A DNA stretch of 64,000 bases. Source: Pirellulales bacterium. Lineage in GTDB: Bacteria > Planctomycetota > Planctomycetia > Pirellulales > JADZDJ01. The notes beneath the pieces are model-generated. The model ran no database searches. It was not told the DNA's origin and worked only from the letters and a program-made list of their open reading frames with translations. Positions 49,798 through 56,347 of this stretch are shown one piece after another (position 1 is the first letter of the stretch; the number at the start of each line of letters is the position of its first letter). A program made the translations under genes and the position numbers. Location: NCBI GenBank assembly GCA_035656635.1, contig DASRSD010000099.1, forward strand, positions 2-64,001, read 5' to 3'.

Positions 49798-50679
49798 TTA
49801 GCGATCATCACTGGGCATGTGCCATGTTCGTTTGGGCAGTGCGATTTTTCGAGAAAACTGTGCCGCGGATGCCTTGGGTGGGGAATCGGCGGCCAGCAGT
49901 TGATCGACCATCGCCTGAGTATCGGTCGCCACGGCAGATAGTCGTAGATTCCAAAGCGAGTGATATACTCCTGTCGAATCGAACAAGTATCCCGGAAAAC
50001 ATATCAAAATGGCGCCGGCGATGCTGTTGTTCAAATCGGTATTTGGCGTAACGCCGCGCAAATGTGCATCGAACGTGGCGCGAAGCGAAGTCGCAATCAA
50101 ATGCCAAGCTCGTGCCCGCACTTGTGGTTGATGGGAACGATCAAAATCTCGGGAAAATTCCTCTGTTCGAGCAGCATCGTGGGCAAATGATGCCGCATGG
50201 ATTAGCGAACCCAAACTACCCAACAGCAAATCGGTCCATCGTTCGGTCAGACGGCGCAAATGGTTTAGGCCGCCTCCATTTTCCGCGTTTTGCGGATTAT
50301 ATGAGATCAGGTTGAGCACGCGGTTCGAAGCTTCCAAATGTCCTGCCATCACGCTGGCCGCCACCGGTTGCGCTTCGCTGCTGCCCGCAACATAATCCAT
50401 CGCTGTCAAGATGCTCGACCACACGCGCGTAAGCATTTCGCTGACGAGAATTTCTGCACACACCGCTTGCAAATTACGGACACCGACAGTTTCTTCCGTA
50501 CAGCTCGCCGACGGCGGTTGCACTTCACGCAGTGTTCGGTTCCAGCGGTCTAACCGGCATTTGGAGACGGTCCAGTATTGAGCTAGCGCAGCAGTGGGAA
50601 CTTGCCGTACGCTACCAATTAGTACGGGCCCTTGTGAGGCAACAAACACGGCTAGGTCGATCAGCTCGCGGGCGTGCAT
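49798..50679 (-). CDS. hypothetical all-helical protein
   Basis: ATG at 50679 (MHARELIDLAVF...); no family recognised; convergent with ABC operon. Confidence 0.5.
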   Translation of the reverse strand: MHARELIDLAVFVASQGPVLIGSVRQVPTAALAQYWTVSKCRLDRWNRTLREVQPPSASCTEETVGVRNLQAVCAEILVSEMLTRVWSSILTAMDYVAGSSEAQPVAASVMAGHLEASNRVLNLISYNPQNAENGGGLNHLRRLTERWTDLLLGSLGSLIHAASFAHDAARTEEFSRDFDRSHQPQVRARAWHLIATSLRATFDAHLRGVTPNTDLNNSIAGAILICFPGYLFDSTGVYHSLWNLRLSAVATDTQAMVDQLLAADSPPKASAAQFSRKIALPKRTWHMPSDDR

Positions 50680-51017
50680 GCAATGGAAAGCATTTTGGAG
50701 ATTGAAGTTGGAACGGCAAGAGCTTTCCTTCTCTGCGGGCGATGGAAAAGAGCCCGAGGGGACAAGAGCTCTTAACCACCGCCGCAAGAGAAGTGGATCG
50801 GGGGGGATCCATAAGGAGGTGATGGGTCCCTAATGCACGTGTAGTGCCAAATGGCCCGGAACGCATCTAAGGGGGAATGCGATCGCGCCGAAACACCGCT
50901 TCTGCAAGAGTTTATCACTCGGCGTGGCCAAGATTCCGCGAAGACCTCGGCGTAAAGTTGTTGCCGCAGTCCACCATTCATGGGGCCGCGGCGTTGTCGC
51001 CAAGCAACATTGGATTG

Positions 51018-51980
51018 TTACTTGGACGGAATCGGCAGCGGCGCCGGGCCAATTACCGTGTCGTCAGGGCCTCGACCCGGCCCCACTTCTTGATCGGCGT
51101 TGGTGTAGATGTTGTCACCGCTTGGCAGAGTGGGCGTGGTTAAATAGCCCGTGTGTAAATCGTCGAACAACACATTTTGCCCGCTGCCGCCGTGATTGGG
51201 GCTGTTCGTTCCGTTCATTCCAGGCCGGTCGCCAAATACGCCAACATTCGGCCGCTCCTGCTTGCGCTGCAGCTTATATTTGCCGTCTTGCATATAACCC
51301 ACCGGGCCGCCGTAACTGCCGCTCAATTGGGGCAGCATTTGAGACAAAAGCGCGGCATCCATTGCTTCCACTTGTTCGACCGTCGGCACGCGGAATTTGG
51401 AGCTATCCGCATCGGAAGAAGAAGGGCAAATCAGCGTCCGGGCCGATTGCGGCAAATAACCCTCCAACTTCGGCGCCCACATGCCCACGGCGTTCACCTG
51501 GTCGCCGGGTCGCACGGCCGGATAATAACCGCCGTTGCGATTGCTAAAATCGGCGGCGGCATAGCCTATGTCTTTCAAATTCTTTTCGCAGGCCAGAACT
51601 TGCGAGTGCGCTTGGCTTTGATAAATCTGCGGCACGAAGAAAATCGCCACCGAAGCGGCAATCGCGCCGGCCACGCCTAGTTCCAGCCATGTCCACCGCC
51701 GCGAAATCCTGGGCGACGTGCCGCCAGCCGGCGGCGATAACGCCGCCGGCATGATTTCCGTGCGCGAATACACAAAATCACAGCAGCGCGCGGCCAAGCC
51801 CACAGGTGGCTCGTGATCCAAACGGCCTTCCGCTAGCGGGGCCAAGCTTCCTCGCAGCAATTCCAATTCCCGCCGGGCAACTTCATCCTGCGCTAGGTGC
51901 TGTTCCACCAGCGCTCGCTCCTCGGGCTCAATGGCGCCCACTAGGTAGCCCAGCAAATGCTCGCGGATGGAATTGCTCAT
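51018..51980 (-). CDS. anti-sigma factor with DUF1559/pseudopilin-like extracytoplasmic domain
   Basis: N-terminus HLLGYLVGAIEPEERALVEQHLAQDEVARRELELL (anti-sigma N-domain style), one TM, then ACEKNLKDIGYAAADFSNRNGGYYP and C-terminal HGGSGQNVLFDDLHTGYL resembling DUF1559 signatures; starts 6 nt after the sigma gene stop. Confidence 0.65.
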   Translation of the reverse strand: MSNSIREHLLGYLVGAIEPEERALVEQHLAQDEVARRELELLRGSLAPLAEGRLDHEPPVGLAARCCDFVYSRTEIMPAALSPPAGGTSPRISRRWTWLELGVAGAIAASVAIFFVPQIYQSQAHSQVLACEKNLKDIGYAAADFSNRNGGYYPAVRPGDQVNAVGMWAPKLEGYLPQSARTLICPSSSDADSSKFRVPTVEQVEAMDAALLSQMLPQLSGSYGGPVGYMQDGKYKLQRKQERPNVGVFGDRPGMNGTNSPNHGGSGQNVLFDDLHTGYLTTPTLPSGDNIYTNADQEVGPGRGPDDTVIGPAPLPIPSK

Positions 51981-51986
51981 GATCGC

Positions 51987-52640
51987 TTACTCATCATCGC
52001 TCGGATGTTTGTTCGTCCACGCTTCGTTCAATTTCAAAATGGCCGCATGCATCCGGCTTTTCACGGTGCCGACGGGAATATCCAGCACCTCGGCGGCCTC
52101 GCGATACTTCATTCCTTGGTAATACACCAATAACACGGCTTCGCGCAACGCTTCGGGCAACTCGGCAATGGCTTGTTGCACCCATTGGCGGCGCTCATCT
52201 GTTTCTAAGTTATCGACTGCCAGCGGCTCTTTGCTGGTGAGCAAATCGAGCAGCGAACCGACATCGTCTTGCGTATCGTGGTGATGACCGCGGCGATCCA
52301 AGCTGACCATTTTGTGCCGCCGGTTGCGACGCTGGGCATCAATCGCCTGGTTGGTGGCGATGGTGTACAGCCACGGACGCACTTTGCGTCCCTCTTCAAA
52401 CTGGTCGGCCTTCAAATACAACTGCAGGAACGTCGCTTGGAACACGTCTTCTGCCATCGTGGCATCGCTCAGATAGCGACGCAAATAGCTGTAAAGTTCG
52501 CGTTCGTAGCGTTGCACCAGCAACTCAAAAGCCCGACGACCCCCACGCAACCGATGCTCCATTAACAGCTCTTCGTCGGTTTTCCGAGCCAAAGCTTCGG
52601 GAGTGTCGGTTTGCGATTGTATGTCGATGGCACTACTCAT
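51987..52640 (-). CDS. ECF-type RNA polymerase sigma-70 factor
   Basis: ATG at 52640; region 2 FELLVQRYERELYSYLRRYL...DVFQATFLQLY...RPWLYTIATNQAIDAQRR; region 4 LPEALREAVLLVYYQGMKYREAAEVLDIPVGTVKSRMH. Confidence 0.9.
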   Translation of the reverse strand: MSSAIDIQSQTDTPEALARKTDEELLMEHRLRGGRRAFELLVQRYERELYSYLRRYLSDATMAEDVFQATFLQLYLKADQFEEGRKVRPWLYTIATNQAIDAQRRNRRHKMVSLDRRGHHHDTQDDVGSLLDLLTSKEPLAVDNLETDERRQWVQQAIAELPEALREAVLLVYYQGMKYREAAEVLDIPVGTVKSRMHAAILKLNEAWTNKHPSDDE

Positions 52641-52730
52641 CTTTATACGCCCCGGCTGGGAAGCGGTTCGCGGTGGGGGCCCATTGCCGGGGCAAAGTTT
52701 CGCCCAAATTCCCCCTGGCAAAGCACGAGC

Positions 52731-52759
52731 ATTATACATGGCATTTTTCCTTCTGTCCG
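52731..52759 (-). promoter_or_regulatory. candidate sigma-70-type promoter for the ECF sigma operon
   Basis: Minus strand CGGACA-N17-TATAAT, about 90 nt upstream of ATG 52640. Confidence 0.3.
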
Positions 52760-53368
52760 ACTCATTGCCGGCGAGCGCACACGATGAGAAGAATGAAGGA
52801 AAATGACTGCGCGTCGCAGGGGTCGAACGGGTTCGCACCCTACATTCGCAAGTGCCGTGCCTGCCAACCATTTGCAACCATTCACCGCAGATATCGGCGG
52901 CAGGCTGCAAAACCCTCTCGCCACAAACCCTTAGCGAACAGGCGCTTTCGTCACCATATTGGAACATAGCCCATTTCGGGCGACCGCGAACAACCGGCGG
53001 GCAAATCGCTGGAAACCCGCTTTTTCTCGGCTCATGCCGAAACGGCAGTCTCGAATTGAGACGCCCTTGGCAATTGCGGCCATTCGCACGGACGAAAGTT
53101 GCCGCCGGCTTTTGTCCCCGATTATTATTTTCCGGACAGAACTGGAATGTTTTGTCGCAGGCTCGCTGCTGCCGGCAGGGAAAATTCGCGGATTTGCCAA
53201 GTGTTGTGCGTGACATAATCAGGCCAGTTTGCGTCGCAAAAGATGTATTGTTGGTGAATTGTTGCTCGTCAGGTCAGTGATCGGTGGTCGGTAAAAATTA
53301 GCCCCGGCTCTGCCGGGGGGCCGCAGCGGAAAACGGTCGCATCATCCCGCCGCATGGCACAAATTTTA

Positions 53369-53392
53369 AAAGCCGCGACCGTCTGTCGCGCT
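53369..53392 (+). repeat. 24-nt hairpin element AAAGCCGCGACCG-NNN-GTCGCGCT, copy 1
   Basis: aaagccgcgaccgtctgtcgcgct; matches 56620-56643 except the 3 loop positions. Confidence 0.7.
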
Positions 53393-53751
53393 TGCCCATG
53401 GGAACCCGTCGCACTGGCCCATGGGCGGCTGCCGACGAGTAATACCAGTGATACATCAGGTTTACCAGTGTTACGGTACAGACGTACACTATAGCAGAAC
53501 AGTGGCCCAAAAGTTAGCCAAAAAATTTTCCGGCTGCGAATTTTTTTACCCCAGAGGACGCAGGGGAACACAGAGGCAGTGAAGGCTTAATATGGGACTT
53601 CAAACCGTATTTAAGAGCTGCGCGCGTCAGCAAGCGGCTAGGACAGCAGCGACAATTGCTACAACTGCTATGGGACATTTCGCCAAACTACGCCAGAATG
53701 GTTGCGTTTCGAGTTCATCGTTTATATACAAGTGTATAGGAGACATCGACC

Positions 53752-54770: not shown

Positions 54771-54922
54771 ATGAGTGGCGGGGGCTAAGCGGGTTCGGGG
54801 CAAAGCGGTATGATATGGGCCGCGAGGGCCAAGCGGGAGGATGGAGTGGCGAGGGGCAAAAAAATGAGGCGGTTGGAAATTCATGGTTAGCCCGGTCGGC
54901 CACGACCGGTGGAGCATTCGCA

Positions 54923-55630
54923 ATGTCGCGACCGGTAATTGGTTACCATTCGATTTTCGGCGCGTATGGATTTTGGCTTCCGAATGATCCCCGCGGGTCA
55001 TGGTCAGAGGTTGTGAAAGCCGAGCACTTGAAACCCTTTGGGGAACCGATTCATCCTGGCACGCGACACTCGGTTGCAAATCGAAAACACGATTCAGCCC
55101 TGCGGCTTGCGGCGAAACAACATCTGCTGCGGAAGAATGTCACATTCCGCGACGACCAAATTGAATGTCTGGCTGGCGGTTTTGGTGAATTGATCCGGCA
55201 AATAAAACTCGTCGTGTTTGCATTGGCGATCATGCCGGACCATGTGCACTTGGTTTATCCTCGACCCGAATGCGATGCGGAGGAATTTGTGGGCATGCTG
55301 AAGCGCGCGGGATCCAGGGCGCTGCGGAAAGCGGGGCTGCATCCGTTTGGCAAGGTCGATGATACCCGCGCGAAAGGTGAAAGCAGAACCGCTTGCGTGG
55401 ACGCGGGTGAAGCGGACGAAGAAATATCCCGCGTGGACGCGGGGGCTAAGCGGGAGAGGCGGTTGCCCACACCATGGGCCGAGAAAGCCTGGCACGTTTA
55501 TTTACACGACAAGCAGGAAATACGGCACAGGATTGGATACGTAGTGCAGAATCCCATCCAAGCGGGCAGGCCCGCGCAGCATTGGGATTTCGTGACGGCG
55601 TTTCACGATACGCCGCGTGGTTGCGGGTAA
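54923..55630 (+). CDS. REP-associated tyrosine transposase (RAYT; IS200-like Y1 HUH family)
   Basis: ATG at 54923 after GGAG; HUH motif MPDHVHLV; C-terminal catalytic-Tyr helix RIGYVVQNPIQAG; flanked by REPs. Confidence 0.8.
   Translation: MSRPVIGYHSIFGAYGFWLPNDPRGSWSEVVKAEHLKPFGEPIHPGTRHSVANRKHDSALRLAAKQHLLRKNVTFRDDQIECLAGGFGELIRQIKLVVFALAIMPDHVHLVYPRPECDAEEFVGMLKRAGSRALRKAGLHPFGKVDDTRAKGESRTACVDAGEADEEISRVDAGAKRERRLPTPWAEKAWHVYLHDKQEIRHRIGYVVQNPIQAGRPAQHWDFVTAFHDTPRGCG
55389..55454 (+). repeat. two REP copies inside the RAYT ORF
   Basis: ccgcttGCGTGGACGCgggtgaagcgg (55389-55415) and cCCGCGTGGACGCGGgggctaagcggg (55428-55454), translated ACVDAGEAD and SRVDAGAKR. Confidence 0.85.
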
Positions 55631-55632
55631 GG

Positions 55633-55715
55633 AAATAACCCCGCGTGGCCGCATGCGATTAATTCCCCGCGTGGCCGCGGGGGCTAAGCGGGATGACAGG
55701 TTGCGGGGGCTAAGC
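55633..55715 (+). repeat. REP copies 5 and 6 plus a half copy abutting the HNH stop codon
   Basis: aaataaCCCCGCGtggcCGCatgcg / attaattCCCCGCGtggcCGCGGGGgctaagcgg / gcgggggctaagc. Confidence 0.85.
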
Positions 55716-56347
55716 TATTTCAAATCGACGGTCCAGTAGGCGCTGTCGACGAAGGTTTTCCAGCTTTCGTACTTGGGGTTATCGAGCTTCACGGACAATA
55801 GCGGGCTGCGCTTCGGCTTAATTGGCGGGCGGACCAATTTCATGTGCGCTTCGTGCGGCGTGCGGCCCCCTTTGCGCACGTTGCAGTTGACGCAGGCGCA
55901 CACCACGTTTTCCCAACTGGTTTCGCCGCCGCGGCTGCGGGGCATGATGTGATCTAAGCTCAATTCGCTGGTTGGGAACACTTTGCCGCAATATTGGCAA
56001 TGGTTGCCGTCGCGGGCAAACAGATTGCGGCGGTTGAAGCGCAGCGTTTGCCGCGGCACTTTATCGTAAGAGAGCAGCCGGATGACGCGCGGGGCTTGCA
56101 GCTCGAAATTGACAGCGCGAATCCAATCTTCGTGCTGCTGCTTGCAGGCGGCCCGCATGGTGCTGATTTCCAACCAGGTTTCGAAGTTGTAGTTGGCGTA
56201 TTGGCCTTCTTCGAAATGAATGACTTCGGCCAGCTCGCGGAACAACAGTCCCAAGGCCCGGCGGACGTTGATGACGTGCACCGCCATGTAAAACCGGTTG
56301 AGCACCAACACGCTGGAACTAAGCCCGCCTTGAGCAAATGCCGTCAT
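55715..56347 (-). CDS. HNH endonuclease
   Basis: HCQYCGK...LSLDHIMPRSRGGETSWENVVCACVNCNVRKG (HNH with CxxC pairs); 210 aa. Confidence 0.88.
   Translation of the reverse strand: MTAFAQGGLSSSVLVLNRFYMAVHVINVRRALGLLFRELAEVIHFEEGQYANYNFETWLEISTMRAACKQQHEDWIRAVNFELQAPRVIRLLSYDKVPRQTLRFNRRNLFARDGNHCQYCGKVFPTSELSLDHIMPRSRGGETSWENVVCACVNCNVRKGGRTPHEAHMKLVRPPIKPKRSPLLSVKLDNPKYESWKTFVDSAYWTVDLK

Follow-up and report, generated by a model that had tools for sequence, protein, structure and literature searches.

A probable anti-sigma factor anchored by a DUF1559-type pseudopilin helix, encoded next to an ECF sigma factor in Planctomycetia

Pairs made of an extracytoplasmic function (ECF) sigma factor and its anti-sigma factor are a well-known signalling design, and the anti-sigma factors carry many sensor domains. 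The described systems closest to the one reported here are SigW/RsiW of Bacillus subtilis, RpoE/RseA of Escherichia coli and AlgU/MucA of Pseudomonas aeruginosa. All three sigma factors are under single-pass class I anti-sigma factors of N-in/C-out topology, encoded in the order sigma then anti-sigma, and are released by regulated intramembrane proteolysis (RIP); RseA and RsiW are proteolytically controlled. Here we describe a locus of the same layout in a stretch of 64,000 nucleotides from a Pirellulales bacterium (GenBank assembly GCA_035656635.1, contig DASRSD010000099.1, positions 2 to 64,001 of the forward strand; the whole stretch is called the window below), where an ECF sigma gene is followed by the gene of a 320-aa protein. 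This protein is likely to be an anti-sigma factor whose membrane anchor and periplasmic part come from the pseudopilin family DUF1559 (SBP_bac_10, PF07596). DUF1559 is the largest paralogous family in Planctomycetes, with 68 copies in Planctopirus limnophila, 2 of them essential (PMC10632474). The architectures listed for SBP_bac_10 in a proteome study of one planctomycete are N_methyl plus SBP_bac_10, a Sec signal plus SBP_bac_10, and SBP_bac_10 alone, and a fusion to an anti-sigma domain is not among them (PMC8567305).

The two genes are on the minus strand (coordinates of all features are in Table 1) and their junction reads TAA-gcgatc-ATG. A preliminary description, made from the sequence alone, had placed there an ECF sigma gene and, 6 nt further, an open reading frame (ORF) for a protein with an anti-sigma-style N-domain lacking the HxxxCxxC zinc motif, one transmembrane (TM) helix of pilin type recruited as anchor, and a block resembling the C-NNLK motif of DUF1559. 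The results below bear this out, and all the peptides it quoted are present; its statements on the rest of the ectodomain fared less evenly and are taken up with the head. A 409-aa ORF listed at 51987-53216 proved to be an in-frame artefact extension of the sigma ORF. From its sequence, 51987-52640 clearly encodes an ECF sigma factor. The protein matches Sigma70_r2 (6.4e-19, 68 bits) and Sigma70_r4_2 (5.7e-18, 64.7 bits) in Pfam, scores 111.7 bits against the ECF superfamily model TIGR02937 (cutoff 42.9), and carries the sigma2 and sigma4 domains only, as do ECF (group 4) sigma-70 factors. As it stayed under the cutoff of every equivalog-level model, it was not placed in a named subgroup. The closest solved relatives by sequence are AlgU, RpoE and SigW, at about 1e-21.

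The pairing of the two genes is strict. When GTDB species were scanned, with one genome each, 353 genomes proved to contain relatives of the 320-aa protein, and the best 80 loci were used. They belong to different species, all Pirellulales, Pirellulaceae, Thermoguttaceae or metagenome-assembled genomes of Planctomycetia, and every match is full length. In all 80, a sigma gene lies directly upstream on the same strand, a few nt away, and its product is an orthologue of the window sigma factor (phmmer, E 1e-42 to 1e-113). Six loci at first seemed to deviate, but only because the ORF coordinates ran from stop to stop. Two alignments were made of the family: A1, with 71 full-length homologues, and A2, with the TM helix and ectodomain of 73 sequences. 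Counts out of 71 below refer to A1.

Residues 1-75 are, by profile matches and predicted structure, a zinc-free class I anti-sigma domain (ASDI), hence a predicted sigma binder. The full protein matches the NCBIfam model NF052375 'antisigma' at E 5.6e-15 (56 bits, under the curated 100-bit cutoff) and PRK13920 'putative anti-sigmaE' at E 5.6e-8, and residues 1-95 alone match only these two (E 2.7e-10 and 1.3e-8, respectively, the former again under the curated cutoff). NF052375 is matched by 71/71 family members. We considered that it might model a pilin-like helix, and this was ruled out: residues 9-79 account for the score, and neither NF052375 nor PRK13920 is matched by canonical DUF1559 proteins. 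In an AlphaFold2 model built from the 71 homologues (mean predicted local distance difference test score, pLDDT, 90.2), the N-domain consists of four helices (4-14, 19-31, 33-50 and 62-74) and runs into a disordered linker, where pLDDT falls below 50 over residues 76-84 and mean pairwise identity (0.26) is the lowest among segments. Searched with Foldseek against the PDB, the N-domain gave RsiW (5wuq, prob 1.00, TMt 0.64) and RslA (3hug, TMt 0.73, rmsd 2.1 Å) at the top, with RskA, MucA and ChrR among further matches; the E-values are weak (0.08-8), as expected because the domain has only about 70 residues. An N-terminal domain of about four helices, encoded beside an ECF sigma gene and co-conserved with it, is typical of an ASDI. 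The HxxxCxxC motif is absent from the window protein and from the family, which sets the domain apart from zinc-binding anti-sigma factors (ZAS), and zf-HC2 matches weakly (residues 5-30, E 0.0017). In place of the motif the window protein has H28xxxD32xxA35, and the family has D at 32 in 52/71 members and L at 35 in 56/71. This is compatible with ASDI membership, since about 44% of ASDIs are without the zinc motif (PMC7406223).

The membrane part is where this protein departs from the described systems. Its only hydrophobic segment (residues 98-119, Kyte-Doolittle about 2.0) follows the basic cluster RISRR, which gives an N-in/C-out topology, the one found in prepilins and in single-pass anti-sigma factors alike. 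Aligned as profiles, residues 96-154 are homologous to the pilin-type alpha1 helix of canonical DUF1559 proteins, in exact register. A canonical DUF1559 profile was made of 51 sequences, taken from a set of metagenome loci (L081-L160) together with 3 canonical genes from the flanks of family loci. Against this profile, hhalign placed A2 at 98.7% probability and E 1.7e-16, columns 1-60 on columns 1-60 without an indel, and comparisons of the family with single canonical DUF1559 proteins gave 96-97% in the same register. Counted from the first residue of mature pilins, position 1 is W or F in the family and F in canonical DUF1559; position 5 is D or E in 72/73 (A2) and 71/71 (A1) members, and E in 51/51 canonical proteins; position 22 is P in 72/73 (A2), 70/71 (A1) and 51/51 canonical proteins. 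R at position 28, C at 36 (73/73 in A2), N and L at 39 and 40, and G, A, L and Y at 44, 46, 47 and 50 are likewise shared by the family and canonical DUF1559.

The same register came out of independent searches. Profile searches of the alpha1 region against PDB sequences returned type IV pilins and GspG only, in this register throughout, and when the linker was included an unprocessed Geobacter prepilin was found at E 3e-4, its KLRNKKG|F aligned to ...SRRR|W of the family. In the AlphaFold2 model residues 98-148 form one continuous 51-residue helix, like pilin alpha1. At the family level PF07596 is matched by 38/71 members at E<=0.01 (best E 5e-8), and the matches inspected individually (9/9) score 26-34 bits, above the gathering score of 23.3 bits; they cover profile positions 3-65 of 268 only. 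A search of a 5.8-billion-protein database with the A2 profile listed no canonical DUF1559 protein among the top 120, where family members saturate, so that it is uninformative on deep homology. Inside the membrane, at residues 103-112 (about 51645-51674), the canonical pilin VVIAIIGILIALLL is shifted to an Ala/Gly-rich VAAGI..AAA, which could favour helix packing or intramembrane cleavage.

What the family has lost is the prepilin cleavage site. At position -1, Gly is found in 9/71 members and Arg in 43/71, and the window protein also has Arg. Trp occupies +1 in 55/71, and a G|F junction is kept by 0/71, which led us to reject a cleavable prepilin site. The prepilin N-methylation model TIGR02532 matches 0/71 members and does match canonical DUF1559 proteins. 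The part that corresponds to the leader is a folded cytoplasmic domain of 79-147 aa (median 93). With Gly(-1) replaced and no G|F, the N-domain should stay attached. Since family position 1 is the first residue of mature pilins and Gly(-1) is gone, the pilin helix appears to have been recruited as TM anchor. The most economical reading of these alignments is that an anti-sigma domain was swapped in for the leader of a DUF1559 pseudopilin, and that alpha1-N now serves as a permanent anchor. An anchor role by itself would not call for the full conservation of the acidic residue at +5 and of Pro22.

Beyond alpha1, the order of motifs is that of DUF1559: the alpha1/C-NNLK block, a CPS motif, then a hairpin of H-X9-DG type. 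When the first 59 or so columns were cut from both profiles, hhalign returned two remaining matches, collinear, as the motif reading predicts. One is the CPS...Y..G region (P 0.004), the other the H-X9-DG region (P 9.5e-5, probability 58.7%), with GQNVLFEDGHVxFL in the family facing GxNxxLADGSVRFI. The tail blocks scored 33.3, whereas 40 column shuffles never exceeded 20.0 and reversing the alignment gave 9.5. C131 is kept in 70/71 members, as is C185, and P186 in 66/71; as the two cysteines match those of canonical 'QC.NNLK' and 'CPS', a C131-C185 disulfide is likely. In the hairpin, H263 is invariant (71/71), D274 and G275 are shared by 63/71 and 50/71 members, respectively, and in the model strands 268-272 and 277-280 flank the turn holding D-G. 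Family spacing is H-X10-DG, one residue over the canonical H-X9-DG, and TIGR04294 (H-X9-DG) is matched by 5/71 members at E<=0.01. The preliminary description had seen here an H-x9-DG end motif with the DG lost. A counterpart hairpin is indeed present, with the longer spacing, but the window protein has H263, ten residues and then D274-L275, i.e. only the Gly is lost, and 50/71 members keep DG.

The hairpin is also the most conserved segment (mean pairwise identity 0.52), followed by the TM helix (0.44), the anti-sigma domain (0.43), the alpha1-C block (0.41), the C-terminal tail (0.36) and the head (0.33). The tail is particular to the family: N294, G302, D307 and V309 are nearly invariant, whereas the canonical DUF1559 consensus ends differently, in ...FxxExIDxxxxxxLxTRxGGE (FLSE.ID....L.TR.GGE). 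It may be a signal or a proteolysis site. The head is shorter than in canonical proteins, about 165 aa after the alpha1 block compared with about 240.

Upstream of the sigma gene, two promoter-like elements are conserved in 78 upstream regions taken from the best 80 loci. The motif [CT]GAAC-N15-18-CGT[AC] is present in 72/78 regions (shuffles: mean 2.7, max 6), at a fixed distance, its CGTA (-10) ending 3-9 nt before the sigma start codon; in the window (52670-52646) it reads CGAACCGCTTCCCAGCCGGGGCGTA-taaag-ATG. It resembles the sigmaW consensus, TGAAAC-N16-CGTA. At so short a distance the sigma mRNA is probably leaderless or near-leaderless, and a Shine-Dalgarno sequence would find no room. 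An ECF-type promoter before its own sigma gene implies that the sigma factor autoregulates the operon through this putative promoter. In the 64-kb window the tight motif has no second instance, and the single copy is the operon's own promoter. Further upstream, GG[CT]A[CT][GA]-N4-T[TG]GC is present in 62/78 regions, in the main between -175 and -250 (shuffle mean 0.6, reverse complement 0), and in the window reads GGCACGgcacTTGC, a putative sigma54-type -24/-12 element. Nothing is conserved over the roughly 170 nt between the two elements in the 78 regions, and 55 canonical DUF1559 genes sampled from metagenomes show no upstream enrichment of either motif. Rfam gave no match in 50700-53600. 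A terminator-like hairpin (52819-52807, minus strand) follows the sigma54-like element in the window. A strong one (53302-53318, minus strand; 7 G-C pairs, then a T-run) shows where the upstream transcription unit ends, which leaves about 660 nt of non-coding regulatory sequence ahead of the sigma gene.

What has been observed is the identity of the domains, the topology, the strictness of the gene pairing and the conservation of the promoter motifs. We propose, with good confidence, that these features describe a two-gene ECF sigma/anti-sigma module in which the anti-sigma factor is a fusion of a class I domain with a DUF1559-type pseudopilin anchor and sensor. The zinc-free class I domain would take the place of the short pseudopilin leader in the cytoplasm, the pilin alpha1-N helix would be an uncleaved N-in/C-out anchor, and the alpha1-C helix with the compacted DUF1559 head (residues 119-320) would form a periplasmic sensor. 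At rest, the N-domain would sequester the sigma factor at the membrane, and a periplasmic cue on the DUF1559-like head would release it, by analogy with RseA, MucA and RsiW most probably through regulated proteolysis of the anti-sigma factor. Freed sigma would then transcribe its own operon from the YGAAC-N16-CGTA promoter, in a positive feedback, and presumably a further regulon; the sigma54-type element about 200 nt upstream may add a second, activator-dependent input. Proteolytic release is favoured because RseA, MucA and RsiW partner the nearest characterised sigma factors, and the topology, together with the similarity of the sigma factor to RpoE, AlgU and SigW, is consistent with RIP-type control. 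Proteolytic control of MucA has been described (PMC3684759). No protease gene is linked to the pair in the examined loci.

Several results weigh against a DUF1559 origin of the ectodomain. The window protein, whole or as residues 111-320, has no PF07596 match at E<=10, and its C-terminal 210 aa match no Pfam or NCBIfam profile at that threshold. The preliminary description had made its case depend on a significant DUF1559 profile hit; the single window sequence gives none, but the family does, so that the case rests on the family. The tail similarity is weak (the probability given above is the highest), and Foldseek found no structural match for the ectodomain in the PDB. The likeness might then be due to convergence or chance, the ectodomain being an unrelated sensor, and any TM plus amphipathic helix being able to align with pilin alpha1. 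We find this hardly credible, in view of a 60-column match in a single register that includes the non-hydrophobic E/D5, P22, R28, C36, N39, G44 and Y50, of at least 9 members above the Pfam gathering score, and of three collinear blocks, with the paired Cys motifs and the H-X9-DG hairpin, that score well above their shuffled and reversed controls. Homology of the whole head to DUF1559 is thus probable, with moderate support from these family-level blocks, but for the globular head beyond the three motif blocks it is weakly supported. With this restriction, the interpretation first given to the locus was essentially right. It could also be argued that the protein is no anti-sigma factor at all but a DUF1559 pseudopilin with a long leader cut by prepilin peptidase, its sigma neighbour having it as target or as co-transcribed cargo. 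In favour of this are the pilin-type alpha1 and the DUF1559-like head, the Gly at -1 in some members, and JGI annotations that call some homologues 'prepilin-type processing-associated H-X9-DG protein'. Such a protein would be very improbable here, as Arg prevails at -1, no member keeps G|F or matches TIGR02532, the supposed leader is a confidently folded, conserved 4-helix domain matching anti-sigma models and structures, and the sigma pairing holds in 80/80 loci with gaps of a few nt.

A different alternative accepts the anti-sigma factor and concerns the way in which it is controlled. The TM helix could pair with canonical DUF1559 pseudopilins, or dock on a platform like that of the type II secretion system (T2SS) or the type IV pilus (T4P), release then being independent of a soluble periplasmic ligand and a classical protease cascade. 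Extraction, crowding or depletion of pseudopilins would then control sigma release, and the sigma factor would report the size of their pool or the activity of the assembly machine. This would account for an acidic +5 and a Pro22 kept almost without exception despite decay of the cleavage site and drift of neighbouring positions, and for the retained aromatic +1 and alpha1-C, with 59 alpha1 positions collinear with canonical DUF1559 and free of indels. There are precedents for a pilin TM segment as an intramembrane signal, from PilA to TM1 of PleC (PMC7196804) and from PilA to PilS (Kilmury and Burrows 2016, as cited in PMC7196804 and PMC6058289). However, conservation of +5 and P22 could reflect inherited constraints on the helix or on its insertion, and the membrane segment is now Ala/Gly-rich, unlike that of canonical pilins. 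No T2SS, T4P or DUF1559 gene is consistently linked to the pair, with 5 canonical DUF1559 genes in about 800 kb of flanks, and the 55 canonical DUF1559 genes sampled share neither promoter motif. All in all we regard this coupling as unlikely, while giving it a real if small chance. If it were true, a covalent pilin-sensor would let the cell measure the state of its DUF1559 pseudopilin system.

The pair shares with SigW/RsiW, RpoE/RseA and AlgU/MucA the gene order, the topology, the nearest solved sigma factors and, in the N-domain, structural proximity to RsiW, RslA, RskA and MucA. In SigW/RsiW-type systems release is proteolytic, and in the window pair it would be so by analogy. It differs in that the TM helix and ectodomain are pilin/DUF1559-derived rather than of the RseA_C, MucA or RsiW type, in the lack of the zinc motif that RsiW has, and in the sigma54-like element upstream. 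With canonical DUF1559 proteins it shares alpha1 (59-60 positions), the CPS motif, the H-X9-DG-type hairpin and the periplasmic location, but these have an N_methyl prepilin leader with Gly(-1), where the family has a cytoplasmic anti-sigma domain of about 95 aa, a shorter head, H-X10-DG spacing, a distinct tail and strict ECF sigma pairing. The fusion shows that a regulatory domain can take the place of a prepilin leader, the N-in/C-out topology being common to both types of protein. A pilin alpha1-N or TM segment, or a pilin C-terminus, is known to feed transcription control, as proposed here, in PilA-PilS of P. aeruginosa, PilA(CIP)-PleC of Caulobacter and PilA108-AlgW (PMC7196804, PMC6058289, PMC3684759), and the last case runs from truncated PilA108 through AlgW and MucA to the ECF sigma factor AlgU. 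In the PilA systems, however, the pilin acts as a protein of its own on a kinase or a protease, whereas the pilin-like module described here is covalently built into the anti-sigma factor. An extracytoplasmic half that is entirely pilin-derived, membrane anchor included, would be unusual among anti-sigma factors. Should the pilin hallmarks be functional, it would be the first pilin module built into a transcription-factor antagonist. The autoregulated promoter would also provide a read-out for what the DUF1559 head binds or senses, and a first genetic handle on DUF1559.

Table 1. Features of the sigma/anti-sigma locus (positions in the window; residues of the 320-aa protein)
Feature	Position	Strand	Basis
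ECF (group 4) sigma factor gene, 217 aa	51987..52640	-	Sigma70_r2, Sigma70_r4_2, TIGR02937
Probable anti-sigma gene, 320 aa	51018..51980 (stop codon included)	-	ORF starting 6 nt 3' of the sigma stop
Predicted cytoplasmic class I anti-sigma domain, zinc-free, residues 1-75	51756..51980	-	NCBIfam models, Foldseek
Linker, residues 76-95, disordered and of low conservation, with the basic cluster RISRR at its end	51696..51755	-	pLDDT, identity
TM helix, residues 96-118, corresponding to pilin alpha1-N (W96=F1, E100=E5, P117=P22)	51627..51695	-	register of pilin, GspG and DUF1559 alignments
alpha1-C, residues 119-154, periplasmic, 'C-NNLKxIGxA..Y..FP' block with C131	51519..51626	-	hhalign, PF07596
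alpha/beta head, residues 155-255, with C185-P-S motif	51216..51518	-	conservation, hhalign, pLDDT >90
H-X10-D(G) beta-hairpin NHGGSGQNVLFDDLHTGYL, residues 256-282, counterpart of DUF1559 H-X9-DG	51135..51215	-	hhalign, AlphaFold2
Family-specific C-terminal tail, residues 283-320 and stop	51018..51134	-	A1; without canonical counterpart
Putative ECF-type promoter CGAAC-N16-CGTA, with 5 nt between its end and the sigma ATG	52646..52670	-	motif in 72/78 regions
Putative sigma54-type -24/-12 promoter-like element GGCACGgcacTTGC, 221 nt ahead of the sigma start codon	52848..52861	-	motif in 62/78 regions

The family is large, conserved, confined to Planctomycetia and unannotated. When 1.84 billion representatives were searched exhaustively with HMMER, there were 1,220 matches at E<=1e-30, 13,781 at E<=1e-10 and 186,385 at E<=1e-3; the best 150 are all end-to-end, with lengths of 310-400 aa. 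At 50% identity the family proper is represented by about 1,220 clusters, none of them from outside Planctomycetia. In public annotations its members are called 'hypothetical protein', and a sequence identical to the 320-aa protein is filed, from a 64-kb metagenome-assembled contig, as 'hypothetical protein VFE46_09280 [Pirellulales bacterium]'. In the literature searched, DUF1559 and anti-sigma are nowhere combined and the family is undescribed, an earlier mention in planctomycete ECF papers being possible; the main text of the ECF reclassification paper contains no pilin or DUF1559 term.

Around the pair, no neighbour is universal across the best 80 loci. Those that are conserved in part either lack a Pfam domain or are DUF6786 or ABC transporter genes. 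In the window, the gene of a 293-aa conserved hypothetical protein (VFE46_09275, 49798-50679, minus strand), of a family of at least 456 clusters, lies on the downstream side of the anti-sigma gene. The model of this protein is all-helical with a pLDDT of 88, and despite this good model no match was found in Pfam, PDB sequences or Foldseek; it adjoins the pair in 22/70 loci only, chiefly in the closest relatives. About 2-4 kb upstream of the operon are an IS200-like Y1 transposase (54815-55630, plus strand; PF01797, E 2e-5) and an HNH endonuclease (55715-56347, minus strand; HNH_5, E 2e-17), possibly mobile-element remnants. Models of the ectodomain and of the N-domain, searched separately, found no paralogue elsewhere in the 64-kb window. 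At one of the 80 loci (L035), a second, divergently oriented ECF sigma/anti-sigma pair is located about 1 kb downstream (L035:7859-9181 and L035:9203-9892, both minus strand). The anti-sigma factor of this second pair, 441 aa long, shares the N-domain (E 4e-6) and has a different, non-pilin C-terminal part.

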